This document shows, piece after piece, positions 11,251 through 44,232 of a stretch of DNA of 64,000 bases. The first letter of the stretch is position 1. Every line of letters starts with the position of its first letter. The notes under the pieces are model-generated. The model was not told the origin of the DNA and ran no database searches. It was given only the letters and a program-made list of their open reading frames with translations. Location: positions 3,447 to 67,446 of the forward strand of contig JAKAGM010000001.1 in assembly GCA_021815445.1 (NCBI GenBank), in the 5' to 3' direction. This DNA is from a bacterium. Lineage in GTDB: Bacteria > Patescibacteriota > Patescibacteriia > UBA10025. The translations under genes were made by a program, and so were the position numbers.

Positions 11251-11822
11251 AGAGTACTCCCAAAAAGAAGTTTAAAGTCCTGAATCGCGGACTGACCATT
11301 GCCTATATCGGAAACGGGAAAGGGAAGACAACCGCGGCTGTCGGCGCGGCAGTCAGAGCGCGCGGCTGCGGGATGCGAGTGCTTTTTTTGCAGTTCTATA
11401 AAAGTCCCGAATGGCCCTCGGGAGAACGGCAGGCTCTCGTGAAGCTGGGCGTCAAGGTTCACGTTGTCGGCGAGGGGTTTGTCGGCATCCTCGGAGACAG
11501 AAAAAAACTTGCCGTACACAAAAAGGCCGCGGAGCGGGCGCTGAGAGAGAGCCGTAGAGCCCTTGTTTCAGGCGCATACGACCTTATTATCCTCGACGAA
11601 GCTATTTCGTGCCTCGAGCAGAAGCTGTTTACGCCTGCCCGGCTGGCGACACTCCTGAAGCTCAAACAAAAATCCACAAAAGCATCTCATGTCCACTTGA
11701 TTTTGACCGGCCACAAAAGATTTCCGCAGATACTCAAGCTCTGCGACCTGGTCACTGAGATGAAGATGGTGAAGCACCCATATTACCAAGGGTTTTTGGC
11801 GGTAAGGGGAGTGGATTATTAA
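11247..11822 (+). CDS. cobA: ATP:cob(I)alamin adenosyltransferase (CobA/BtuR type)
   Basis: P-loop GNGKGKTTAAVGAAVRA, plus LDE and VTEMKMVKHPY motifs. The start is refined to the ATG at 11247 (ATGA overlap with the previous stop). Confidence 0.85.
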   Translation: MKSTPKKKFKVLNRGLTIAYIGNGKGKTTAAVGAAVRARGCGMRVLFLQFYKSPEWPSGERQALVKLGVKVHVVGEGFVGILGDRKKLAVHKKAAERALRESRRALVSGAYDLIILDEAISCLEQKLFTPARLATLLKLKQKSTKASHVHLILTGHKRFPQILKLCDLVTEMKMVKHPYYQGFLAVRGVDY

Positions 11823-11954
11823 CCACAAAGTACTATGGACACCCCAACACCTCAGCCCACCCCACAATCCTCATCAAGCACAATGATGCGAGTCATTTTG
11901 GTAATCATTCTCATTATCGTCGGCGCGGGCGCTTACTTCTGGTGGCAGAAAGGG
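11815..11954 (+). repeat. 140-bp direct repeat, copy 1 (leader plus first 40 codons)
   Basis: Read base by base, it is identical to 13371..13510. It begins in the last 8 nt of cobA. Confidence 0.95.
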
Positions 11955-13304
11955 CAAGCAAATACGAACAGTGCGAACCTCGTCCTCAATGCCATGAACC
12001 AGAGTACCAATGCGCCCTCCAACATCAATTCGGTTGCCAACGCGAACACCACCTTGAATACCAATATCGCCGTAAATGCCAATACTCCCGCTAATCTCAA
12101 CACGGCAGTAAACACCAATACTGCGGTAAACTCAAATACCAATACCGCAGTGGATACGAGCGGGTGGCTGGCCGAGACGGCGCGATGCAGTCATGAGCCC
12201 GTATCTCAGCAAAAGGAAAGTATCTTAACTGATAACTCTGACTGGCAAGTCATACGGGTATACAGGGGTGAGCTAAAATTCTCGTACGAAGTACCTTCTA
12301 GTGCAACTTTTAATACCGGTCTGGACAGATATACGAAAACTGGGTCAGAAGAGAGGGAAGTAATATCCGAAGTAAATCTAGAAGGTATGGCTATTGATGT
12401 TAGATGGTATAAAAACAACTCTTCGTTTGAGCTGTGGACTAGGGATCATGAGAATGAGATTTATACTTCCTATATTGCCAGCTCACGTGGCGCGGCAATA
12501 TCGGAACCAGAGCAGATAGTTGTTGATGGACGCAAAACAAAAACATATGAAGTTACGAGTCCTTTTGGGTTTAAGGTAATGCTGGTTTTTGTTGAGGATG
12601 GGGATAAAATATATCAAATAGAGGTTCGGGGGCCAGCGGAGAATATGGAAAACTTCAAAGGGGATATCAATAAAGTATTAATGAGTTTTCACTTTGAAAT
12701 CCCTGATCCAGGTGAATTGATATTTACCTATCGCGAAATTGATCTGTCCTTCAGGTATCCTTCATCCGTCGGCACTCCTCAGCTTGCATGGGGTACCCCA
12801 GTGAATAATAAAAATTGGGAGAAAGCTATGATTGAAGTAGGTCAGAAAGGCCAAAGTGCTTTTTCAATAACACGGGAAGCGGATTATTATAGCTCACATG
12901 AAAATGAGTGGCTGTATACTTTTTACGGGAAAGCGGTCGATGCTAAGCAGCCTCTTTCAGATTTAATCCTTTTTATAAGTAGAGATTTCAAAAATATTCT
13001 CGGTATTTCAAATAAATGTGGTTTCGTTGAGATAGTTGAACTAGACCAATATAATACTCAAACAGCGTTAATTTATCGAGCATTTGTTCCTCATCCTGAT
13101 TATAAGGTTGTATTAGCAACTTTCGTGATAAGTACATCTTTTCCTAATCTTGAAAATAGTAATATTGATCCTAATCTTGTGATAGCCAATGATATGCTCA
13201 ATGACATTAAAATGGGTACATTTCAACAAGATATTATTCAGAATTTAGACACATTTCGTGCGATCTTACCAACAATAAAAACTGCAACACCCCTACCCCG
13301 CTGA
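11835..13304 (+). CDS. TM-anchored surface protein with an Asn-rich linker and an AT-rich unique C-terminal domain
   Basis: The N-terminus MDTPTPQPTPQSSSSTMMRVILVIILIIVGAGAYFWWQKG is identical to that of 13391..14113, followed by an N-rich linker that ends in AVDTSGW. Confidence 0.7.
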   Translation: MDTPTPQPTPQSSSSTMMRVILVIILIIVGAGAYFWWQKGQANTNSANLVLNAMNQSTNAPSNINSVANANTTLNTNIAVNANTPANLNTAVNTNTAVNSNTNTAVDTSGWLAETARCSHEPVSQQKESILTDNSDWQVIRVYRGELKFSYEVPSSATFNTGLDRYTKTGSEEREVISEVNLEGMAIDVRWYKNNSSFELWTRDHENEIYTSYIASSRGAAISEPEQIVVDGRKTKTYEVTSPFGFKVMLVFVEDGDKIYQIEVRGPAENMENFKGDINKVLMSFHFEIPDPGELIFTYREIDLSFRYPSSVGTPQLAWGTPVNNKNWEKAMIEVGQKGQSAFSITREADYYSSHENEWLYTFYGKAVDAKQPLSDLILFISRDFKNILGISNKCGFVEIVELDQYNTQTALIYRAFVPHPDYKVVLATFVISTSFPNLENSNIDPNLVIANDMLNDIKMGTFQQDIIQNLDTFRAILPTIKTATPLPR

Positions 13305-13370: not shown

Positions 13371-13510
13371 ATTATTAACCACAAAGTACTATGGACACCC
13401 CAACACCTCAGCCCACCCCACAATCCTCATCAAGCACAATGATGCGAGTCATTTTGGTAATCATTCTCATTATCGTCGGCGCGGGCGCTTACTTCTGGTG
13501 GCAGAAAGGG
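13371..13510 (+). repeat. 140-bp direct repeat, copy 2
   Basis: Identical to 11815..11954. Confidence 0.95.
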
Positions 13511-14113
13511 GATACAAAAATAAACACCGCAAACATTGCCATTAATACTACCAATAGGAACACAAATACCGTCTCCAATGCCAATTCGGCTGTGAATACC
13601 AATGTTGCCTCAAATGTCAACACTGCCGCTAATCTCAACACAGCGGTGAATGTGAATGCGGGGGCAAACTTAAACACCAACGCGGCAGTGGATACGAGCG
13701 GGTGGAAGACGTATGAGAATAGCACGTATGGGTACAACATCAAATATCCAACAGACTGGAAGGTAGTTGAGGCCACGGGGATGCTTACAGAATTCTCGCC
13801 CACGAGCAAGGATTATACCGTCGAGGGCTCGATTGCCTACCCCGTGGGGATAACAGGCTATACAGGCGCTGCATCTGATTTCTTAAGTCAGGTGTCGTCA
13901 GATAAGAAGAGTTCAGTAACCATTAATAATCAGGCTGCCACAAAGGTCATAGGATATTCGAATTCAATCTCTTATGTCTTTTCTAATCAGGCGCGAGTGC
14001 AATATCTGGTAATTGGTCCAAATAGCGCGCTGTTAAATAACGTAGATGTTTCAGATCGATCAACAATAGAATCGATGTTTGAGGCAATGCTTCGGACGTT
14101 CACAATTCAATAG
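13391..14113 (+). CDS. TM-anchored surface protein sharing its N-terminal module with 11835..13304
   Basis: Same 40-aa N-terminus and an N-rich linker ending in AVDTSGW, followed by an unrelated C-terminal domain (YENSTYGYNIKYPTDWKV...). Confidence 0.7.
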   Translation: MDTPTPQPTPQSSSSTMMRVILVIILIIVGAGAYFWWQKGDTKINTANIAINTTNRNTNTVSNANSAVNTNVASNVNTAANLNTAVNVNAGANLNTNAAVDTSGWKTYENSTYGYNIKYPTDWKVVEATGMLTEFSPTSKDYTVEGSIAYPVGITGYTGAASDFLSQVSSDKKSSVTINNQAATKVIGYSNSISYVFSNQARVQYLVIGPNSALLNNVDVSDRSTIESMFEAMLRTFTIQ

Positions 14114-24018: not shown

Positions 24019-24044
24019 GATCGAGGTTTGGGAATTAGAGTAGT

Positions 24045-24070
24045 GTATCAGTGTGTTAACACATTGATAC
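24045..24070. repeat. 26-bp GTTAAC-centred palindrome, copy 1
   Basis: GTATCAGTGTGTTAACACATTGATAC. The right arm overlaps a TTGATA-18 nt-TATAAT promoter (24064-24093). Confidence 0.85.
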
Positions 24071-24239
24071 ATACATAAAACTGTTTTTATAATGCATTGA
24101 CACTTGTGTGGGCGACTGCTACCATTGTCTAACCCTTTCGTACATTCGACATTCAAAAACATAACTACCAATAACAGTGCAGCCCTTTATATGTAGGCAA
24201 CACAAATTCTTAGTCCACGTTCTGAAGAAGGAGGATCAC

Positions 24240-29253: not shown

Positions 29254-29784
29254 ATGTCGCGGCCCTTTCACTTACACGTAGAAGAAGGATATTATTTTCT
29301 TACTGCTCGGACTCAGCAAGGATACCCGTTTTTACATAGCCAAAATGCCAAAAGAATTCTCTTAGGATCAATTGAACAATCGGTTCAACAATGCACGATT
29401 AAACTTTTTGCGTGGGTAATAATGGATAATCATTACCACATTCTTATCGGTACCGATAGGGGGCAAAGAATACAACAGCTTATGCAGCTGATTCATGGAA
29501 GAAGCTCAAGACGTCTACGAAAGTTTAATCAAACGGAGGGCAGACTGATCAGTCTGCCCTCCACGGGGTGGAAAGTCTGGCAAAATTACTGGGACATATG
29601 TATCCGTGATGAGGCAGATTTCTTTACCCACCTGAACTATATCCACCACAACCCGGTCAAGCACGGATTAGTGAGAAGGATGGAGGACTACCCATTTTCA
29701 AGCTATAGACAATACGTTCAAACAGAGGGTTCTCAGTGGCTCGACAGCTCCTTTGAGACTTATCCCGTCATTGACTTTACATAG
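29254..29784 (+). CDS. IS200-like Y1 HUH transposase / REP-associated tyrosine transposase (RAYT)-like
   Basis: HUH motif NHYHILI, downstream YIHHNPVKHGLV with the catalytic-Tyr region, 176 aa. I saw no flanking terminal hairpins. Confidence 0.75.
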   Translation: MSRPFHLHVEEGYYFLTARTQQGYPFLHSQNAKRILLGSIEQSVQQCTIKLFAWVIMDNHYHILIGTDRGQRIQQLMQLIHGRSSRRLRKFNQTEGRLISLPSTGWKVWQNYWDICIRDEADFFTHLNYIHHNPVKHGLVRRMEDYPFSSYRQYVQTEGSQWLDSSFETYPVIDFT

Positions 29785-29820
29785 TAGTAACCTTTCAGCT
29801 GCCTGACCATTACGTCCGCC

Positions 29821-29849
29821 TTGACAAAAGTTTACAGTTCATGTACGGT
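29821..29849 (+). promoter_or_regulatory. sigma70-type promoter (TTGACA-17 nt-TACGGT)
   Basis: TTGACA at 29821-29826, followed by a 57-nt leader to the SPFH gene (RBS aaagagagg). Confidence 0.5.
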
Positions 29850-29906
29850 ATGGGGAATTTCTAAATCACAAACTGTTCATCACATTCAACAGAAAGAGAG
29901 GTTTGT

Positions 29907-30974
29907 ATGGCCGCGGATCCAAGCGCTGAAAACACAGGATCCCGCCCGGGGCGACTCAGTGCGCTTCGAGATTTTACTTCGCGTTTTAAACCCACATTCA
30001 AAGCCGATGATAAGGCAATGCTCTTACTTCGGCTGGTCCTCTTCGTCGCGTGGGTCGGAGCCACCCTGGCTCTAGCTTTCACGCACCCGTTTCTGGCCGT
30101 CACCTTGTTTGGCACGGTTATGTTCTTCTTCGGCACCGTCAAGGTGGACGAAGGCAACCGTGGACTTCCATCTCTGCTTGGCGGGCGCAAACCCGTAAGT
30201 TTGCCTGAGGGCCTGAAGCCAGTCCTACCATTTTTGATCACGGTGCGCAGTATTGATATCCGTGATCATCTGACGATGGTAACTGTCAGGCATCAATCCG
30301 CGGACGGTTTCTTTCATGATGTGCAGGTTGCCGTGCAGTGGCATGCCCCTCGACGAAATGATGAGTCTGGTCGATGGTTCGACGGTCGTCAGCTTCTGGC
30401 GTTCGACAACCTTGAACCAGGGGTTGCTGAGCGGCAAGTGATCGCGCTGACCGAACAGGCTACAGAGCCCACCATAGCTTCCTATGCCCACGATCAGCTG
30501 TCCGGCATTAATGTCTACCAGTTGGTGGACAAGCTCAAGGATGCTCTGGAAAATGGGGTCAGCCTTGACCTGGGCGCAATCTTCTCCCGGGACTCGGCAA
30601 TCGCCCTGAAAACCCGGGCGGACATGGCTCGCCAAATCCGCGATGTCATTTCCGTCCAGCTGAAGTCTGTCGGGATTGTTGTCTCGATGGTCGCTATGGC
30701 CGTCGTGAATCCCGACAAGACCATTGTTGACCTCCTGGAGGAAATCCAAAGGCAGTTTGTCGAGAAGTCCTCCCAGGCGCTCGATACCGCGGGTGACATT
30801 CAGAAAGCGCTTCAGTTTGTCGAGGCGGCTAAGAGGCGCGGCCAGGAAGTTACGCTGCTTGACGCGTATCGAACGATTCGCGACCTCGATAACCGGGAAG
30901 TTGCAGCGAAGCAGGGCCTCTCAAGTGCCCTCATTGAAAGTCTTGCGAGGGCGGTCAGCAGTCAGGCAGCATGA
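29907..30974 (+). CDS. divergent SPFH/Band-7 domain membrane protein
   Basis: Two N-terminal TM helices, then VKVDEGNRGLPSLLGG..PEGLKPVLPFLITVRSIDIRDH (the SPFH core pattern) and a long helical C-terminus. Confidence 0.6.
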   Translation: MAADPSAENTGSRPGRLSALRDFTSRFKPTFKADDKAMLLLRLVLFVAWVGATLALAFTHPFLAVTLFGTVMFFFGTVKVDEGNRGLPSLLGGRKPVSLPEGLKPVLPFLITVRSIDIRDHLTMVTVRHQSADGFFHDVQVAVQWHAPRRNDESGRWFDGRQLLAFDNLEPGVAERQVIALTEQATEPTIASYAHDQLSGINVYQLVDKLKDALENGVSLDLGAIFSRDSAIALKTRADMARQIRDVISVQLKSVGIVVSMVAMAVVNPDKTIVDLLEEIQRQFVEKSSQALDTAGDIQKALQFVEAAKRRGQEVTLLDAYRTIRDLDNREVAAKQGLSSALIESLARAVSSQAA

Positions 30975-31023
30975 TCTTTCAACTTCTTCGGGTGTGAGCG
31001 GCCCAAGGGTGTTCACCTCCCAC

Positions 31024-31053
31024 GGACTCGTGTATTTTGCGGGTCCTTTTTTT
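31024..31053 (+). terminator. intrinsic terminator after the SPFH gene
   Basis: ggactcg...cgggtcc stem (one mismatch) followed by a T7 run. Confidence 0.55.
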
Positions 31054-31095
31054 GTTCAAGTGGGATTACGAATCCCACCTACACGTGAGGCGGTC

Positions 31096-31125
31096 TTGAC
31101 AAGATCATGGTAAATGTGGTAAGGT
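31096..31125 (+). promoter_or_regulatory. promoter with extended -10 (TTGACA-...-TGgTAAGGT)
   Basis: TTGACA at 31096-31101 and TGgTAAGGT at 31117-31125. Confidence 0.5.
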
Positions 31126-31275
31126 GGGGTGCTTTTTATGATGCACAAAGTGTGTCTTAGGAAGCTTGTCAGGAGGGTAGTATTTGAATGCTCTTTGACA
31201 ATTGAATGAACAATCAACTTAAGTTCTCATAACTCATAGCTCACCCCAGATGCGGGTGGAAAGGAGTAATTCCTT

Positions 31276-31380
31276 ATGAACGCGCATGCGTTCAAAGTGT
31301 CTTTTGGCACTTGGTGCGCCAGGGCACCCGCAAATTCCTGGACGTTTCCACTTCCAACGCGGGAGGTGAGCGATGGTTGA
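31276..31380 (+). CDS. candidate small ORF (34 aa) in the operon leader
   Basis: GAAAGGAG lies 9 nt upstream of the ATG. The peptide is MNAHAFKVSFGTWCARAPANSWTFPLPTREVSDG. It is absent from the ORF track because it is shorter than 60 aa. There is no homology evidence. Confidence 0.3.
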   Translation: MNAHAFKVSFGTWCARAPANSWTFPLPTREVSDG

Positions 31381-31431
31381 GCAGTATCTTGGAATGGCGC
31401 AAGTTGTTGAAGCGGGAGGAGGTGATCCTTC

Positions 31432-32355
31432 GTGAGGGAAAATCCAGCTTTACCCTTCGGCACATTAATTCGATGGGGAATTTCTGCTGCCAGACGGCAC
31501 AGCGAAGGTGAATTTAAGGATGGCATCCACTTCCTACATGAAGCCGACCACATGCTCTTTGCTTTTTTGCGAGAGCTAACCGACCGCACACAAAGTCCAG
31601 AACTTCGAGCACTTTTGAATTCCGTCGTCGAAGAACTGGGCCATTCCATTGGAGACAGCGAAATGGTACAGCAGCGGAGAGACAGAGGCAGGGGACAGCC
31701 CCAAGGAGCCTCTGTACAGAAAGATCGTCAACAGAATGTTAAAGTTGGCGATTCAGCACGAGGCAGAGTAAAGGTGAACGATCTTTCGGGCGCCGGCGGA
31801 GACCGTCTCAGACATATTCTGCAAGTAATTGATACCAAGGATGCGGAGCGAGCTTCATTGGTTTGCGAGAAGCTTGATGAGCACAGTCAATCGGGGCTGC
31901 TGCATCTTGGTCAAAGTCTGATCGCAGCGGGTGGTACGGATAATGAACAAAAGGACCTGCTGCTGAGACTCCTCGGCATCGGTGTTGGTGAAGAAAAACA
32001 AGCACACTCGAACACCGAAGTGATTACGAGAGCCGCGGAAGTTCTTTCGTGGCTTTCACCCGAGACTAAGCTGAAACTTCACGCAGCTAAGGCAAGCAAT
32101 GAAGCGCTCGCTGCTTTGCATCCTCTGGGAGAAGATCGCGTGCGCAAGTTGCTTGACGAAATGGCGCAAGATCTGGAGTTTCTCGAACAGCTCGTTGCGG
32201 CTAAACACGGGAGAATCCAGAAGGGTTTTTCTTGGATAGGCCGCATGTTTCAAAACTTGCGCGGAACACCGGCAAGCACAGATCAAGTGGAGGCCGCGCG
32301 CGCAAGCAACCTTGCAGCATGGGCAGCGGTCGAAGCACAACGCAATGCGAGTTAA
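31432..32355 (+). CDS. hypothetical all-helical protein (307 aa)
   Basis: GTG start preceded by GGAGGAGGTGAT, an almost full anti-SD complement. No recognisable motif. Confidence 0.55.
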   Translation: MRENPALPFGTLIRWGISAARRHSEGEFKDGIHFLHEADHMLFAFLRELTDRTQSPELRALLNSVVEELGHSIGDSEMVQQRRDRGRGQPQGASVQKDRQQNVKVGDSARGRVKVNDLSGAGGDRLRHILQVIDTKDAERASLVCEKLDEHSQSGLLHLGQSLIAAGGTDNEQKDLLLRLLGIGVGEEKQAHSNTEVITRAAEVLSWLSPETKLKLHAAKASNEALAALHPLGEDRVRKLLDEMAQDLEFLEQLVAAKHGRIQKGFSWIGRMFQNLRGTPASTDQVEAARASNLAAWAAVEAQRNAS

Positions 32356-32408
32356 CTGCAACCAATCCCCGGTGACGACAATTGTCCCGGTGCAAACTGG
32401 AGAAATAC

Positions 32409-33023
32409 ATGGCTGATAAAAGTGATGAAAGGGAAAAGCGTCCCGACAAGGACGAAAGGCCGAAATCAACCGCCGAAAAGGTGGCTGAGATAGCGGCTGA
32501 TCCTGTCACAGGGATGCTCGAAGGATTCGCCCAGGCGTTCCGCGAAATCGTGATGGACAGATCCGTCGCGGAGCTTGTGGTTCTGTGGCTGATGGGACTC
32601 GTGACTACGAAGATTGTAGTTAACGGGATCTCAAACTTCATTCGCAATGATGCAAACCTCGTGGACATGAAACACCAGCACAAGATGGAGCTTCTTGGCC
32701 GCCTCACCGGGAACACTGAATGGTTCCTGAAGCAGTGCAAGAAGACTCTGATTGAATGCAAGGACTTCGTGTTCGACAGAGCGAGTAAGTATTACCAGTT
32801 CCTCAAGACCAAGGACACCGAAAGTGCGGCATGGATCACGACCCACGCAGATCGTTTTGCAGCGGATGCGGAACGGATCCGTTTGGGGAGGAAGCAGGTA
32901 AGCTTTCTTCACCCACTCAGTGTGTTCAACCGGAGATTGGTATGGCGTCGTCGCTTGTGGCCAATCTCAATCCAGACGATCACCGTACCAACAACAGCAG
33001 TCAATGCTCAGGAGGTAAACTAG
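32409..33023 (+). CDS. hypothetical single-TM protein (204 aa)
   Basis: ATG at 32409 lies 7 nt after GGAG. Acidic N-terminus and a TM segment (VVLWLMGLVTTKIVV). The R/W-rich C-terminal tail could reflect a frame problem, because ORF 32831..33283 overlaps it in another frame. Confidence 0.45.
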   Translation: MADKSDEREKRPDKDERPKSTAEKVAEIAADPVTGMLEGFAQAFREIVMDRSVAELVVLWLMGLVTTKIVVNGISNFIRNDANLVDMKHQHKMELLGRLTGNTEWFLKQCKKTLIECKDFVFDRASKYYQFLKTKDTESAAWITTHADRFAADAERIRLGRKQVSFLHPLSVFNRRLVWRRRLWPISIQTITVPTTAVNAQEVN

Positions 33024-33024
33024 C

Positions 33025-34995
33025 ATGTCGGATGCAAATTCGACTTCAACTGGCCCGGAAGACGGCGCTGATACCATTTCTAAAAAGCGCGGTCTCTTCA
33101 AGTGGCTGTTACACTTGTTTGACAAGGAAAAGATGGATCCGGCAGCTCGTGGCCTCCTCAACGAGATTGACACTGAGGAAGGCACCAAACCGGTATGGCT
33201 CCTATGGGGTGCGTTGGCGGGAATGTTCTTCGCCTTCACTCAAACCGGCCGGTCTGGCGTCGACGCTGGCTACCAGTTCGTGAATCGCGAGCTGCAGCGT
33301 TTTCTGGATTTCACAAAACGCATCGCAGTGTTTACGGTATGGTGCGTGCTTCCAGGAGCGTTCTCGTACGTATTCTGGCTCTTGATGGCGACATGGCTGC
33401 AATTCGATCCGTCGTTTTGGCTGTTCTGGTCGGGGATCCTGGTTGCTCTCGGATGGACTGTGTTCTTCACCTATTTGGTGGTCATCCAGAGCATCATTCG
33501 GCTTCTCAAAGTTCAGGAAGACCTGTCGACAATCGACACCAAAACTCCGGAAGGAAAGAGGCTGAAGGAAGAGCGACGTGCGGCACGTTTTGCTCTCGCT
33601 GGCGCGTTCTCGAAATCGATCCTGTGGTGTTGCCTCTATATCCTGTTCGGTATGCTGTTGCGGCCGTGGGAACATCTCCTCACGTTCGTTATCTTCAACC
33701 TTTCCCTCTTTGTGACGCTCTTGACGAAAGACTCGTCACAGCGGGGGCGTGAAGGTAAGTGGACGATCGGACATCTCATGGAAGCTGTGCAAATCGGCAG
33801 CATAGCCGCGGTATGCATTTTCCTGACGATTCACTACTGGAATGTTGGTCTTCGGCGCGCGGGTGGTCCCCAGGTTGCAAAAGTCCTCGATGCCCTTGCT
33901 GACGTGGGTATTGTCACTTCGGACCAAGTTCTCGGTTGGGCACCGGTGAAGAGACAGGTCGACTCACTGAAAGTCGTCCGTTCAAAAGCAGAAGATCGGA
34001 ACAAGGACGGTTTTGTCGATGCTCTCGATACCGCATTTGCCGTCATGGATATCGACGGTCGCGGCGGGATGCCAAATCTCGCCGATCTGAGAGCTTTCCC
34101 GCTGTATTTCAGGTCAACCGCTGACACCACCATCAGTGAGCTCGGTGACGGTACGATGGATACCACAATTGTACGTGGCCCGCGCGAGTGGACTCTTCAT
34201 GCCACTGTCGGACCCTACAAGCAGCCGGTCGGCGACTTCAACGGCGATTTCCATGTCAACATGGAGGACTCCCTAGATTTCGCAAATTATCTGCTTATGG
34301 GTGGACACCCGCCAATCTACCAGACCGATCCGGATATGATCCCCGCCGGCGACAGACCTCTCACATCCGAGCCTCCAAAGAAGGACACTCTCGTGCTTTA
34401 CGGATCCTTGGAGAAACCTGAGGCTCGCTATCCGTCAGCCGATGTGAGGGATCGCGCTGACAGAATCCGCCAGCTCGCGGAACGCCAAGTAGAGGGAGAA
34501 CAGCAGCGTGCGGTGGTCGTACCGTCGGTATCTGAAGTGCCGATGGCATACTCACCGCAAACGGTGAATTACAACGTGGATGCGAAGAATCCCGAGCCCC
34601 TCTCCATAGGGCGATTCCCCAGCGGTTCTGTGATTCACATCCTGGCCACGGGCAAGATCAGGTACGATAATTTACTCGCCCAAAGGTTCACGATCGGTCC
34701 CATCGGAGATCCCGAGCAGGGGCCGGTATGGAAGGCCAATGTTGCCGGCGAAGACTTACCGATCTGGCATGGAGCACTATGCATCGTGGTCCCGCCAGAT
34801 AAGTCCATCAAAGGATTCGTACCCCCGTCGCAACACATGCCCTTGAATTGGATAAGGGATGGTGGCGGCGTATGGATTGCCGACTTCCCTGTCTCAATCG
34901 ACGGGGAGTATGAGCTTGTCGTCGCAGACGGAGGATACGGCGACAATGACGGGTATTACGTGGCTACGGTCAAGTGGTCACGTCAGTCAAGTTAG
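33025..34995 (+). CDS. polytopic membrane protein with dockerin/EF-hand-like loops and a C-terminal PA-IL (LecA)-like beta-sandwich domain
   Basis: AGGAGG RBS. About 7 TM segments. DRNKDGFVDALD and GDFNGDFHVNMEDSLDFANYLL Ca-loop motifs. The C-terminal pattern ILATGKIRY...HGALCIVVP...YELVVADGGYGDNDGYYVATVKW resembles LecA. Confidence 0.6.
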   Translation: MSDANSTSTGPEDGADTISKKRGLFKWLLHLFDKEKMDPAARGLLNEIDTEEGTKPVWLLWGALAGMFFAFTQTGRSGVDAGYQFVNRELQRFLDFTKRIAVFTVWCVLPGAFSYVFWLLMATWLQFDPSFWLFWSGILVALGWTVFFTYLVVIQSIIRLLKVQEDLSTIDTKTPEGKRLKEERRAARFALAGAFSKSILWCCLYILFGMLLRPWEHLLTFVIFNLSLFVTLLTKDSSQRGREGKWTIGHLMEAVQIGSIAAVCIFLTIHYWNVGLRRAGGPQVAKVLDALADVGIVTSDQVLGWAPVKRQVDSLKVVRSKAEDRNKDGFVDALDTAFAVMDIDGRGGMPNLADLRAFPLYFRSTADTTISELGDGTMDTTIVRGPREWTLHATVGPYKQPVGDFNGDFHVNMEDSLDFANYLLMGGHPPIYQTDPDMIPAGDRPLTSEPPKKDTLVLYGSLEKPEARYPSADVRDRADRIRQLAERQVEGEQQRAVVVPSVSEVPMAYSPQTVNYNVDAKNPEPLSIGRFPSGSVIHILATGKIRYDNLLAQRFTIGPIGDPEQGPVWKANVAGEDLPIWHGALCIVVPPDKSIKGFVPPSQHMPLNWIRDGGGVWIADFPVSIDGEYELVVADGGYGDNDGYYVATVKWSRQSS

Positions 34996-35022
34996 TTGAT
35001 TGTGTCATTTCAATTGTTCAAC

Positions 35023-35055
35023 GGGGGACGAGTCTTTACGATTCGCCCCCTTTTT
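35023..35055 (+). terminator. intrinsic terminator
   Basis: GGGGG...CCCCC stem followed by a T5 run. Confidence 0.6.
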
Positions 35056-35224
35056 ATTTAGCGGCATCAGATGTTTGCATAATGGGTCATGCAGACATTT
35101 TTTAAGTTGAAATAAATTTTCGAGCGGCGATAGCATGTAAAAAACTTGGAAGAATTCTCACTTGAAATAATATGCGTTCCATGGTATACTGAGTCAGGAA
35201 ATAAAAAACCAAAACCATTATCCC

Positions 35225-38200
35225 ATGCTACGACGGTATCTCTTTTTTACCGCAGTGTTTGGCGCGATAGCCATCGCGATAAGCATTTTTGCTGTGCCTG
35301 TCGGCCATGCTGCTTACGGTGATACGTCAACATTTATAGGTCAAATCTATGCCGGGGATGGCGGTCAGGTGCTGGACGCGTACTTTGATTTTCCTGATGA
35401 CATGATCCTTGATGCATCCGGAAATTTTCTCATCGCCGATACGTATAACAATGTCGTTCGGAAAGTGGACGGCTCGGGTATCGTGAGCACGATGGCCGGC
35501 ACGGGGTCGACGGGATTCATTAACGGTGCGAGCGGGTCAGCCGAATTTTATCAGCCGCGGGCGCTTGTCGCCGCTGCGAACGGCGATATCTACGTTGCTG
35601 ATTCCGCGAACAACGCCGTGCGAAAAATAAGCGGAGGAATTGTTTCCACCGTAGTTTCATCGGGGCTGAATTCGCCTCTGGGGCTCGCACTTGCCGGTAC
35701 GGCACTCTATATCTCTGATTCAGGAAACAATGCAATCAAGTACGTGAGCACGAGCGGAGGCGCCGTCACTACGTTGGCGACTGGCGTGAATGATCCCCGT
35801 AAACTTATCGTCAGCGCCGACGGTTCAAAACTTTATGTTGCTGATAACGGGAATCACCGTGTTGTTTCCATTGCACTGCCCGGAGGAGCCGTCACGGTTG
35901 TCGCCGGGTCGGGAACGTCAGGGTATGTCGAAGGAACCGGCACGGCTGCCCAATTCCAAAATGTCTGGGGGCTTGTCCAGGATGGAACGACACTCTACGT
36001 CACCGATCATGACGGGCTGGTGACTGACAGGATTCGCACTATTAATTTAAATACCGGGACGACCGGCCTTTTTGCCTTTGACCAGTACCAGCGCACAATG
36101 CTCTACCCCGGGGCCCTTGTCATAAAAGATGGTTACCTCTACGCGATGATGACCGGTAGAGGCACCATTCAACGATTTCTCCTTACTGATTCCGCTACGA
36201 CAGACCACTTCGGAGGTGTGGAGGCCTTCAGCGACACGATAGGCACCAACGCATTGGTGGGCAGGCCGCTTGATTTGACGTTGTCTCCCGACGGGAAGTA
36301 CGTGTACTTTTCCGAGAACAACAAGGTACGGAAGTTTGATGCGACCACGGGCGAGGTGCTCACCGTGCTTGGCTCCATTACTGACGGGTACCGTGAAGGC
36401 ACGGATGCGTACCCGAGTCCCATGAGATTCAGCGGGCCTTTTGGCATCACCGTGAACTCCACAGGCACGCGGCTGTATGTCGCCGACAGGAACAATAACA
36501 GGATCCGGGGAGTGCTTCTTGACGCGACTCCAATTTCTTCGTTCCTGGTGAGCGGAGCCGGGTTGACGAATACGACCGGCACGCAGGACAACGGCTACCA
36601 GGAGGGCGTGAAGTGCGAAGGAGAACTTGCCCAAGGGGTGTCAGGATGCGCGTATTTCAAAAATCCTGCGGGTATAGTCATTGACCCGACAAACACGTAT
36701 CTCTATGTCACCGATACGGGGAATAACCGCGTGAGGAGAGTCCGCATCTCCGACGGCCAAACTTCACTCATAGCCGGATCCGGGACAGCGGGATTTGCCG
36801 ACGGCGCCGGTTCCGCGGCAAAATTCAACCGGCCATTCGGGATAGCGATTGATTCGGCGGGCAAATTCCTCTATATCGCCGATTCAAACAATCATCGCAT
36901 TCGCAAGATTGACCTTGCTACCAATACAGTCTCGACATTGATCGGAACCGGGGCCCTCGGCTACGCCAATGCAACCCCGTTGAATTCAGTGCTCTCGTAT
37001 CCCGAATATGTCGATGTCACCAGTAATGGCAATGTGTATTTTACCGAAGCGGGCTCCCAGCGCATCCGTGTGTTTGATATTGCCGCAAACGCAGTCAAGC
37101 TTGTCGCCGGCTCCGGCACCCGCGGCTTCCTCAATGGCGCCGCGTCGGTGGCGAAGTTTAACAATCTCAAGGGGCTCGCAGTAGATACTCAAAAGAACAA
37201 GATTTTTGTCGCAGATTCCTGGAACGACCTCATTCGCGCCGTCAATATTACCGGAGATATTCCGTATACTGACCCGGCTCCCGAGGTTGCGGCTGTATCA
37301 CCGAAAAACGTCAATCCCGCGTGGAACACCGGGTCGGGCCTTAAAGTCCAAATCACGGGAAAAAACTTTCGGTATAACGCGACTGTATTGTTTGGAAACT
37401 TCACTGCTGAGAAGACATGGGTAGTGTCGGGGACTGCGATAGTTGCGCAGCTCCCGCTTTCAAAGATGTCCCCTGGAATCTATGACGTCACCGTTCGTGA
37501 AGCTGACGGGCAGGAAGCGACGCTGGAAAAAGGGTTCAATCTTACGCAGACAAATAATGCTCTCTCAACCACCTACTTTGCCTATGCGGGAAAGAAGCAG
37601 GCGAACATTGCCGTGGCGCCGGGAAGTTCTTTCTTTGCTTTCTCCTCAACGTTGAGAGGAGGTTTCAATGTTACCTCGGGAAATGTGGCCGGGGACAGCA
37701 AAAGCGAAATCATTGTCGGGACGGGAAACGGTATGAATCCCGAAATCCGTGTTTTCACGAATGGAGGAAAACTTCTCAGCGCGTTTGCACCGTATAGCCC
37801 CTCCATTAAGTCGGGCGTGCGCCTCTATGTCTGCGATGTGAATGGCGACGGGGCGAAGGATATAGTCACAGTCCCCGGGCCGGGCGCTGCACCGCTCGTC
37901 AAAGTATTTTCGGGCGAGGGAAAATTGGAGTCAAGTTTTTCCGCGCTCGACGGAAAGTTTAAAGGCGGCGCGTTCTTGGCCTGCGGAGATGTGAATGGCG
38001 ACGGTGTCAGCGATATAGTCGTATCCGCGGGAAAAGGCGGGGGGCCACATGTCACCGCGCATTCGTCCTCCGGCAAAATCATAGCGAACTTTTTCGCTTA
38101 TGATAAAAATTTCCGAGGAGGCATCAGGGTCGCTACGGCAGATATTGACGGTGACGGCAAGGAAGAAATCATTACCGGGCCCGACAACGGCGCGCCGCAC

Positions 38201-38551: not shown

Positions 38552-38579
38552 AAAGCGTTGAAAAAGGAATAGCGTGGGT

Positions 38580-38605
38580 ATATCAACGTGTTAACACATT
38601 AATAC
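38580..38605. repeat. 26-bp GTTAAC-centred palindrome, copy 2
   Basis: ATATCAACGTGTTAACACATTAATAC followed by ATTTCG, 24 nt upstream of the 38630 ATG. Confidence 0.8.
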
Positions 38606-38629
38606 ATTTCGAAAGACAAGAACAGATCC

Positions 38630-39280: not shown

Positions 39281-39320
39281 TGTACTTTGAGGGCCATGAT
39301 GTAGCGTCGCATATGTTAGT

Positions 39321-39346
39321 GTTCCGATGTGTTAACACACTAGTAC
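39321..39346. repeat. 26-bp GTTAAC-centred palindrome, copy 3
   Basis: GTTCCGATGTGTTAACACACTAGTAC followed by ATTTCG. The left arm is degenerate. Confidence 0.75.
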
Positions 39347-39508
39347 ATTTCGTAAATAAAAAATTCCAGCCAGCCTTTTATGTGCAAACAGGGGTTGTTT
39401 TTGTTTCAGTAAGCGTATAAACTACCGGCGGTAGAGATGGTATCGCGATGTAGTGTTTTGAGAATACATCAAGGGGTCATGAGCAATGTTTTATGCTAAC
39501 ATGATAAT

Positions 39509-41305: not shown

Positions 41306-41432
41306 CGGACCCAACCCCGTCATTCGCGAATGACGGGGTGGTCTTCTCCGTGATCCCGCACCATGTCGCTTCGCTCCAGATGCGGGACTTCGCAGGGAGG
41401 CATTTTCCTCAAACCGGACCCAAGGGGATTTG
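41306..41432 (-). pseudogene. degenerate partial tRNA-Asp copies
   Basis: 41410-41432 repeats 23 nt of the T-loop/acceptor/trailer segment (identical to 41568-41590). 41306-41399 carries TTGGGTCCG plus TCACGGAGAAGACCA and CTCCCTG, with a 39-nt hairpin inserted in the anticodon loop and the T-arm replaced by a 9-bp hairpin. Confidence 0.6.
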
Positions 41433-41572
41433 GTTCCGGGGTCTCGCTGTTCCTTCGGAACATCGCTCGACCCGTCTCGTCCCGCGCGAAGCAAAACTAT
41501 TTGCTTCGCTTGTTGACTCAACCCCCTGATCTTCTCGGGGATCTGTGCAAGTTAGGCGCATTGTTTCCAAAC

Positions 41573-41647
41573 CGGACCCAAGGGGATTTGAACCCCTGGT
41601 CTTCTCCGTGACAGGGAGACGTGTTAACCGGGCTACACCATGGGTCC
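41573..41647 (-). tRNA. tRNA-Asp (GTC)
   Basis: Manual cloverleaf: GGACCCA/TGGGTCC acceptor, GTGT/ACAC D-stem, TCTCC-CTGTCAC-GGAGA anticodon arm, AGGGG-TTCAAAT-CCCCT T-arm, discriminator G. No CCA is encoded. Confidence 0.9.
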
Positions 41648-41757
41648 GGTTTGGAAACAATATGTTAATGTGACGTTCACTACTTTACCAAGCGAAATGG
41701 GAAATGTACAGGGATAGCACAAAGAACTGTCACTGTCCGCCGGAGGGGCGGTTTTTC

Positions 41758-44109: not shown

Positions 44110-44184
44110 AGGAATATGAGTAGTATACAGGATTTTTGAACTGTGGATAATCGGGGTTGACGTCCGAAGTTGTTTGGGTGTAGT

Positions 44185-44210
44185 GTATCAATGTGTTAAC
44201 ACACTAATAC
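44185..44210. repeat. 26-bp GTTAAC-centred palindrome, copy 4
   Basis: GTATCAATGTGTTAACACACTAATAC, preceded by GTAGT as in copy 1, 22 nt upstream of the yerC-like ATG. Confidence 0.85.
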
Positions 44211-44232
44211 ACCTCAGCATGTACCCCATTTT

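Follow-up and report, generated by a model that had tools for sequence, protein, structure and literature searches.

A candidate surface lectin operon with a structured leader in a small clade of Parcubacteria

In this study we analyzed a gene cluster at positions 29,821 to 35,055 of a 64,000-nucleotide stretch of bacterial DNA (the window; contig JAKAGM010000001.1, Patescibacteriota). The cluster comprises a gene for a divergent SPFH/Band-7 protein and, downstream of it, three genes that we call HEL, STM and BIG (the trio). We tentatively propose that the trio is an operon restricted to one lineage, a small clade of Parcubacteria, and that it may encode a membrane-anchored surface lectin complex which would be translated only under certain conditions. 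An earlier reading of the same DNA, made from the letters without database searches (the sequence-only reading), had described two transcription units. Both promoters, both terminators and the four open reading frames (ORFs) were found as it had claimed. The second unit, which carries the trio, is laid out as follows.

31096..31125, + strand: operon promoter, TTGACA, 18-nt spacer, TG-extended TAAGGT
31432..32355, + strand: HEL (putatively helical gene), 307 aa, GTG start
32409..33023, + strand: STM (small-transmembrane gene), 204 aa
33025..34995, + strand: BIG, 656 aa
33982..34314, + strand: dockerin-like module of BIG, two DxNxDGxxxxxD calcium loops with a long insert between them
34558..34983, + strand: putative C-terminal PA-IL/LecA-type lectin domain of BIG, aa about 512-653
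35023..35055, + strand: operon intrinsic terminator, GGGGGACGAGTC...GATTCGCCCCC, then TTTTT

For comparison we used eight further contigs representing seven other genomes (L001, L002/L005, L003, L006, L008, L009, L010 and L011; L002 and L005 come from one genome). The genes of the operon are tightly packed, with gaps of 53 nt between HEL and STM and 1 nt between STM and BIG, and the Shine-Dalgarno (SD) sequences are strong, with GGAGGAGGTGAT 5 nt upstream of the HEL GTG and AGGAGGT upstream of the BIG ATG. All of this had been noted before and can be read directly from the DNA. The GTG start is also backed by the N-termini of the HEL homologues, whose shared G-T-x-I-R motif favors the longer form (GTG at 31432) over the public call of 267 aa (P0066), which starts 40 codons further downstream and leaves out 31432-31551. 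The public HEL call in L009 is likewise too late, the true ATG being at L009:8481.

Domain architecture of BIG, HEL and STM

Hydropathy analysis gave about six hydrophobic helices for BIG, where the sequence-only reading had counted about seven; its count of one transmembrane (TM) segment in the 204-aa protein was correct. The K/R-rich loops of BIG (residues 74-99, 159-188 and 235-247) all lie on one side of the membrane, and by the positive-inside rule residues 271-656 would be outside the cell. AlphaFold2 (AF2) models of BIG reached a mean pLDDT of 40.6 when built from 4 sequences and 48.8 when built from 8 sequences, and the C-terminal 145 residues, with a pLDDT of 60-86, are the sole usable part. 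Since AF2 performed poorly outside the lectin domain, the predicted topology rests on the positive-inside rule. A loop between two TM helices, KDSSxRGRxGKWTIGH (33727-33765, aa 235-247), is the best conserved stretch of the membrane part, which otherwise diverges fast. The loop would face the cytoplasm, and we consider it a candidate site of contact with the partner proteins.

The predicted outer part of BIG contains two calcium loops, DRNKDGFVDALD (aa 324-335) and DFNGDFHVNMED (aa 404-415), whose loop residues are invariant in the family alignments. The Pfam model Dockerin_1 (PF00404) matched the window BIG with an E-value of 2.9e-4 and 21.4 bits, just under the cut-off of 22.9, and the L011 homologue with 7.4e-10 and 39.3 bits. 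When a library was searched by profile, 55 of the 56 matches beyond the seven family members fell on the calcium loops only. These sequence matches indicate that the dockerin signal in the BIG family is genuine.

The C-terminal domain of BIG appears to be a lectin of the PA-IL/LecA type. Alignment of the BIG family with LecA by hhalign gave a probability of 91% (E 1.1e-6), and the family profile, compared with the whole PDB, retrieved PA-IL lectins only (best 2.2e-5). The jelly-roll beta-sandwich fold of PA-IL is also predicted by the model of the domain: a Foldseek search with the lectin domain of the 8-sequence AF2 model yielded an E-value of about 1e-4, and the poorer 4-sequence model yielded generic beta-sandwich matches only. 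The family has retained both the terminal motif G-x-[YF]-x-[DN]-N-x-G-x-[FY]-x-V and an Asp upstream of it. In the window BIG the predicted calcium ligands are D635...D640-N641; the Asn is invariant, and the pattern occurs in all seven aligned members with loops of varying length. The calcium ligands of EclA's N-terminal domain (EclA-N) are Asp/Asp/Asn (PMC11875179), to which the BIG pattern D...[DN]-N-x-G corresponds. The published family consists of small soluble proteins and the two-domain EclA, which was presented as the first fusion of a LecA domain with another protein part (PMC11875179). On this evidence, we think that BIG probably carries an outward-facing lectin. The sequence-only reading had spoken of Ca-loop and lectin-like modules, and these can now be named as dockerin-type loops and a PA-IL/LecA-type domain.

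The two partners of BIG are true orphans. HEL has no TM segment by hydropathy and is soluble, and STM is bitopic, with a charged N-terminus, one TM segment (aa about 55-75) and a coiled-coil-like C-terminal part. HEL matched no family in Pfam, NCBIfam, PHROGs or PADLOC, and its family profile found nothing significant in the PDB; for STM there was no Pfam, NCBIfam or PHROGs family, and the PDB search with its profile returned insignificant coiled-coil matches only. The PADLOC matches of both proteins were at chance level (E 0.003-0.008). The sequence-only reading could not match the gene combination to any described system, and indeed PADLOC, NCBIfam and PHROGs were empty of significant matches for the trio. 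With Pfam included, and with the homologues of all four proteins scanned as well, SPFH and a weak dockerin signal were the sole findings. HEL has positional homologues in seven loci, connected via intermediates in L006 and L009, and is the most divergent gene of the locus. In L005 (9566-9986; GW2011_GWA2_48_9), STM lacks the ~57-aa charged N-terminal part seen in L001 and others, and the ORF begins within the TM segment.

Distribution and divergence of the locus

The BIG family is small. An exhaustive profile search among 1.84 billion representatives returned seven clusters (50% identity), and word-indexed searches found just one to three relatives each (three for BIG). All BIG relatives bearing a name are Patescibacteria or Parcubacteria. 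The loci share a common frame, which reads ComEC, GlpX and aldolase (on the opposite strand), MBL, RAYT, SPFH, HEL, STM, BIG, a 531-aa multi-TM protein, an NHL/FG-GAP giant and GH77, with the RAYT, SPFH and multi-TM slots not filled in every locus. HEL, STM and BIG stand together in every locus covering the region (the window, L001, L005, L006, L008, L009, L010 and L011). The sequence-only reading would have been refuted had the genes co-occurred in no other genome; they do so in seven. Synteny in the clade extends over more than 20 kb.

Within this frame the trio diverges far faster than its flanks, yet it is under purifying selection. Between the window and L011, identity is 59% for MBL and 73-76% for SPFH, and it falls to 16% for HEL and 20% each for STM and BIG. 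In the comparison of L003 with L009, the multi-TM gene is 89% identical and BIG 42%, and the identity of the NHL protein stays steady at 60-68%. The ratio of nonsynonymous to synonymous divergence (dN/dS) between L001 and L005 was 0.11-0.27 overall (HEL 0.21, STM 0.27, BIG 0.13), which argues that the ORFs are real genes. For the same pair, dS was 0.24 (multi-TM gene), 0.25-0.4 (BIG C-terminus), 1-2 (BIG N-terminus), 1.1 (STM), 2.2 (HEL) and 0.95 (SPFH). The peak of dS thus falls on HEL, in mid-cassette and inside a syntenic frame, and the pattern points to recombination of old divergent alleles and not to simple fast evolution. A diversity-generating retroelement was rejected as the source of this variation: the 64 kb hold no template/variable repeat pair, and the divergence runs across all three genes.

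The sequence-only reading had also remarked that the block looked richer in GC than its neighbors. The block is marginally richer (0.534 versus 0.516 for the window), a value that about 5% of equal-sized windows reach, and the adjoining GlpX and aldolase genes are richer still (0.57-0.58), so that there is no real compositional anomaly. Horizontal acquisition, prompted by the GC remark, was rejected in view of the ordinary composition and the syntenic locus.

Between the BIG and NHL genes, the seven other loci encode a multi-TM protein of 531-559 aa with ~12-14 TM segments and without a Pfam match (e.g. L001:5942-7537), which resembles GT-C glycosyltransferases by appearance only. The window alone lacks this gene, the interval 35056-35224 there measuring just 170 nt. 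The gene directly downstream of the operon in the window encodes an NHL/FG-GAP protein of 1108 aa; it marks a surface-protein neighborhood, which we count in favor of a surface complex.

The position of the GT-C-like gene downstream of BIG in seven of the eight loci would also suit a housekeeping envelope module, in which the lectin has as its ligands glycans of the wall or surface layer of its own cell and serves envelope assembly together with this neighbor, not host contact. The fixed chromosomal place of the locus between ComEC/MBL and the NHL gene and the purifying selection on all genes fit such a role as well. However, the window has no GT-C-like gene, and where this gene is present it is well conserved (40-94%), whereas the trio is hypervariable. 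Moreover, a difference of 80% is rare for housekeeping envelope parts when the neighbors are 60-75% identical. We consider this alternative unlikely.

The sequence-only reading had wavered between a surface complex and an abortive-infection module. A membrane-acting anti-phage or abortive-infection system with SPFH as its organizer could account for a highly divergent trio with a recombination-like dS pattern, for membrane proteins without assigned function and for the adjoining RAYT. Yet a PADLOC search (PADLOC-DB 2.0), which that reading had suggested as a check for known defense systems, gave no significant match for the four proteins, and SPFH and BIG had none at all. Pfam and NCBIfam scans revealed no nuclease, NTPase or toxin-like domain, and outward lectin and dockerin-like modules are without parallel among the defense models scanned. 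Homologous genes occur in every genome, which is not the picture of a variable defense island, and the locus is strictly vertical and syntenic. A defense role is thus very unlikely. Of the two branches, the surface complex is favored because the calcium-loop and lectin modules are real; nothing was found for the other.

The leader RNA and its small open reading frames

The 335-nt stretch between the operon promoter and the HEL GTG, which the sequence-only reading missed, forms a structured leader that is conserved and contains small ORFs (sORFs). Its features in the window are the following.

31131..31201, + strand: two 5′ leader hairpins, the second with conserved GCTCTTTGACAA in its 3′ arm
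31239..31371, + strand: structured leader domain, 133 nt, with a closing helix GCUCACC/GGUGAGC around the first SD (SD1), the start of sORF1 and three hairpins in tandem
31276..31380, + strand: sORF1, 34 codons (MNAHAFKVSFGTWCARAPANSWTFPLPTREVSDG), behind GGAAAGGAG
31373..31435, + strand: sORF2, 20 codons, its start overlapping the sORF1 stop and its stop overlapping the HEL GTG

The spacing between SPFH and HEL is 330-580 nt in all seven SPFH-bearing loci, which is unusual for such compact genomes, and in L006 the leader is present though SPFH is absent. Alignments show as conserved elements the promoter, the two hairpins, CTCACCCC, GGAAAGGAG followed by ATG, GGAGGTGAG and the HEL SD. The operon promoter (CTTGACAA...TGTGGTAnnGT) forms conserved alignment columns in 7-8 loci, while the downstream proteins are just 16-40% identical. 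A TTGACAA at 31195 was rejected as a second promoter, as it has no conserved -10 element and lies inside the 3′ arm of a conserved hairpin.

The pair of 5′ hairpins was predicted independently at the same place in seven of the eight loci, with differing arms (e.g. CTTTGTGATG/CATCATAAAG in L001 versus CTTTGTGGTG/CATCACAAGG in L009); L008 has the first only. When the eight leader sequences were folded separately, one design emerged: a closing helix CUCACC/GGUGAG, an inner helix, a hairpin at the SD or start codon, and then two or three tandem hairpins whose sequences differ by locus. The 5′ strand of the closing helix is anti-SD-like, and its 3′ strand is the sequence that serves sORF2, the following ORF, as SD. 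A candidate local hairpin CACCC...GGGUG, read from the sequences, would compete for the 5′ strand.

With five leaders aligned to a covariance model, 89% of the cells pair versus 37-48% in slid controls; covariation is 0.159 versus 0.094 (0/500), and seven pairs change on both sides. Two subgroups of loci differ in one hairpin, GGUGC[GCCAGG]GCACC as against CCUGC[UUCCGA]GCAGG. As the alignment was fitted to the structure and the sequences are few, we regard the support from covariation as moderate. Each locus has a single copy of the element, and the rest of the 165 kb has none. The five-leader covariance model, searched over the same 165 kb, found no second copy and did not recover the L001/L005/L008 subgroup, and Rfam gave no match to the leader at E<=1 (29700-35300).

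The SD and ATG of sORF1 are invariant in all eight loci, and each locus has an open frame of 22-44 codons. The sORF1 stop falls within the closing helix or directly behind it in seven loci, and 2 nt upstream of the HEL start codon in L006. In six of the eight loci an sORF2 of 17-20 codons begins where sORF1 ends and overlaps or abuts the HEL start, and in L006 and L010 sORF1 itself abuts it. From these arrangements we conclude that the operon's translation is coupled to the leader and probably regulated through it.

The sORF1 peptides (22-44 aa, without a hydrophobic segment) carry at residues 10-18 a motif C-x-R-A-(G)-P. It takes the form RAPx in four loci (RAPA, RAPD, RAPL, RAPS), RAGP in two and RAGF in one, and is missing in L010; the codon used for the Arg is AGG in some loci and CGA/CGG in others. 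Variants of RAGP, RAPP, RAPG and RAPx are the hallmark of arrest peptides of the SecM/ApdA/ApcA type (PMC10987492), and RAGP as well as RAPA, RAPS and RAPD of the ApcA cluster were among the query motifs of that study. Hypothetically, ribosomes could arrest at the sORF1 motif. Since the Cys and Ala codons form the two arms of a hairpin, part of the motif may be dictated by the RNA.

This raises the question of whether the leader acts purely as RNA, as a ligand- or protein-binding switch or a stabilizing 5′ structure, with the small ORFs as by-products. The third positions of TGG TGC GCC AGG GCA CC[CT] are identical in four deeply diverged loci, the change from W-C...A-P to A-C...A-G peptides follows a compensatory swap of the stem from GG/CC to CC/GG, and the helices are backed by covariation, all of which such a view would explain. 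It does not, however, account for the strong SD and ATG that never vary, for frames that stay open over their full range despite differing lengths and reading frames, for the unbroken stop/start chain into HEL in every locus or for the Arg kept by non-adjacent synonymous codons. We hold an RNA-only leader to be somewhat unlikely; it would be compatible with a surface lectin operon.

The SPFH gene, a proposed model and known systems

The first transcription unit contains a single gene.

29821..29849, + strand: SPFH gene promoter, TTGACA, 17-nt spacer, TACGGT
29907..30974, + strand: SPFH/Band-7 gene, 355 aa
31024..31056, + strand: SPFH gene intrinsic terminator, 9-bp stem (31024-31046) with 5 G-C pairs, then TTTTTTTGTT

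Its product was taken for a divergent SPFH protein, rightly so: residues 79-292 match Pfam Band_7 (PF01145) with an E-value of 7.4e-8 and 33.1 bits, above the gathering cut-off of 23.6. The homologues in L008 (6e-13) and L009 (9e-8) match Band_7 too, and the family profile, compared with the PDB, retrieved HflC first (2.7e-4), followed by prohibitin, HflK and stomatin (to 0.08). By hydropathy, an N-terminal membrane anchor precedes the SPFH domain, with hydrophobic residues 38-75 and a central THP turn, as a hairpin or a single span. Identity to the window copy is 73-76% in L011, 57% in L008 and 19% in L009. No match to NfeD was found among the neighboring proteins in the family scans.

The two units share a promoter type. 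The pattern TTGACA-N16-19-TAnGGT has two matches in the 64-kb window (29821 and 31096) versus 0.05 expected, and in L001, L005, L008, L009 and L011 sites of this type likewise precede both units. In L010 the strict pattern is found before the SPFH slot only, the operon site reading TTGACA...TAGGTT. The equivalents at the SPFH slot lie 80-90 nt upstream of the gene (L001, L005, L008, L009, L010, L011).

It is quite possible that SPFH and the trio are neighbors by descent only, with no joint function, which would also leave room for a surface lectin operon. SPFH has its own promoter and its own terminator, the latter also discernible in L011; the gene is absent in L006, truncated and degenerate in L010 and barely recognizable in L009; and between the window and L011 it is 73% identical, with the trio at 16-20%. 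On the other hand, both units use one conserved promoter form that appears nowhere else in the window or the loci, and the adjacency held in seven of the eight loci across deep divergence. The organizing role that the sequence-only reading gave to SPFH is therefore not established: the neighborhood stands, but the gene is separately terminated, dispensable and evolves at a different rate. We regard it as a separate, dispensable unit that may scaffold the complex, and a link between SPFH and the trio as plausible.

The window also holds a RAYT gene and several repeats. The RAYT gene at 29254-29784 matches the NCBIfam model REP_Tyr_transpos (5.6e-37) and has the same position, with MBL on one side and SPFH on the other, in L005, L006, L009, L010 and L011; it is missing in L008. 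Its copies are of two deeply different types, ~47% and ~20% identical to the window copy. As the same slot is kept across loci by two such different types, RAYT looks vertically kept and domesticated rather than mobile. A 32-nt near-perfect palindrome, GTAGTGTATCAnTGTGTTAACACAnTGATACA, occurs in four copies (24040-24071, 38575-38606, 39316-39347 and 44180-44211), at least three of them just downstream of gene ends, and these are candidate REP elements for the RAYT or bidirectional terminators. A 45-nt direct repeat (41400-41444 and 41558-41602, 80% identical), one copy of which overlaps tRNA-Asp (41572-41648), could be a remnant of integration at the tRNA. Finally, a 299-nt direct repeat with 78% identity, its copies 1.5 kb apart (11815-12113 and 13371-13669), covers the starts of the adjacent ORFs 11835-13304 and 13391-14113 and may reflect a partial gene duplication.

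Our model for the second unit is as follows. BIG would be held in the membrane by its ~6 helices, with the dockerin-like double calcium loop and the PA-IL/LecA-type domain exposed outside. The latter would most likely bind glycans on a partner (host) cell or surface. STM and HEL could be accessory subunits at the membrane and its inner face, a role suggested by operon structure and co-inheritance. The trio would represent old alleles that recombine, in line with what one expects of a structure that serves recognition and is subject to diversifying pressure. For expression, transcription from the conserved promoter would produce the folded leader, in which the CUCACC strand pairs with the SD of the next frame. 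Downstream translation would then need ribosomes translating, and perhaps pausing in, the enclosed sORF1, after which they would pass along the overlapping stop/start chain into HEL. The SPFH gene, with the same promoter type, may provide the scaffold. In this model, gene anatomy, domain identities, restricted distribution, divergence pattern and leader structure are shown by the data, and topology, complex formation, host binding and regulatory logic are predictions. Episymbiotic biology is usually assumed for these bacteria, and contact with a partner cell is consistent with it.

Several points weigh against this model. Co-occurrence of the trio is limited to one clade with more than 20 kb of synteny, and because of this it does not by itself prove functional linkage. 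The Pfam PA-IL model (PF07828) matched two of the seven BIG members, weakly and below threshold (E 0.016 or weaker), so that we treat the domain as a remote member or relative of the family; in addition, the calcium loop of the window BIG and three homologues is two residues shorter than that of LecA. The AF2 model, with a mean pLDDT of 48.8, is of low quality except in the lectin domain, and the lectin could equally bind the wall glycans of the cell itself. The roles of HEL and STM are guesses, as neither has detectable relatives or folds. Finally, HEL, the fastest-evolving gene, is predicted to be cytoplasmic, which neither host-surface recognition alone nor any of the alternatives explains.

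If the surface lectin model holds, it has several implications. How bacteria of the Candidate Phyla Radiation (CPR)/Patescibacteria recognize and hold their partners is barely known, and BIG, which diverges much faster than its neighbors, as recognition molecules do, is a concrete candidate. It would add to the PA-IL family both a new phylum and a new architecture. The leader adds an unannotated structured RNA with coupled small ORFs, a case of translational control where regulation is essentially unexplored. A bolder version would make the operon a host-specificity determinant of episymbiotic Parcubacteria, a recombining, allelically ancient lectin complex gated by a new kind of leader, in which a pause at the RAP/RAGP peptide within the folded RNA unmasks the SD and sends ribosomes on through the overlapping small ORFs. 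We judge this combination improbable; if true, no arrest-type translational switch would have been described in the CPR before it, and it would act on adhesion rather than secretion genes. Searches of the literature on Parcubacteria dockerins, SPFH proteins in Patescibacteria and CPR hypervariable surface proteins brought up no account of such a system, and the architecture of polytopic anchor, dockerin-like module and lectin, like the two partners, is not known to have been described.

The cluster resembles several known systems in part. HflK/HflC and the stomatin/flotillin systems with NfeD likewise have a membrane-anchored SPFH gene adjoining membrane-protein genes; here, however, the cluster contains neither NfeD nor FtsH, the SPFH gene is a separate transcription unit that some genomes dispense with, and its neighbors fall outside the known SPFH-partner families. 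The leader recalls SecM-secA, MifM-yidC2 and ErmCL-ermC, where a small upstream ORF also lies within a stem masking a downstream SD, and its R-A-P-x in four loci and R-A-G-P in two may correspond to the motifs of the RAPP-like arrest peptides (SecM RAGP, ApdA/ApdP RAPP, ApcA RAPG and its RAPx relatives). In contrast to these, the sORF1 peptides are short, have no signal or TM segment and carry the motif in mid-peptide instead of near the C-terminus, and they therefore cannot be force-sensing 'monitoring substrates'; the downstream genes, moreover, are not sec or yidC. With type I dockerins, including non-cellulosomal dockerin-like modules, BIG shares two EF-hand-like 12-residue DxNxDGxxxxxD loops, each followed by a helix, and in the L011 homologue the match to the Pfam model reaches significance. 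The loops in the window are nevertheless ~70 residues apart instead of adjacent, the score there stays just short of the Pfam cut-off, and they sit in a membrane protein from a CPR bacterium that is not cellulolytic. Finally, the PA-IL/LecA lectins (LecA of P. aeruginosa, PllA of Photorhabdus and the EclA N-domain of Enterobacter) are small, soluble proteins of 121 aa, whereas here the putative domain, with its shortened calcium loop, ends a 656-aa polytopic membrane protein and follows a dockerin-like module.

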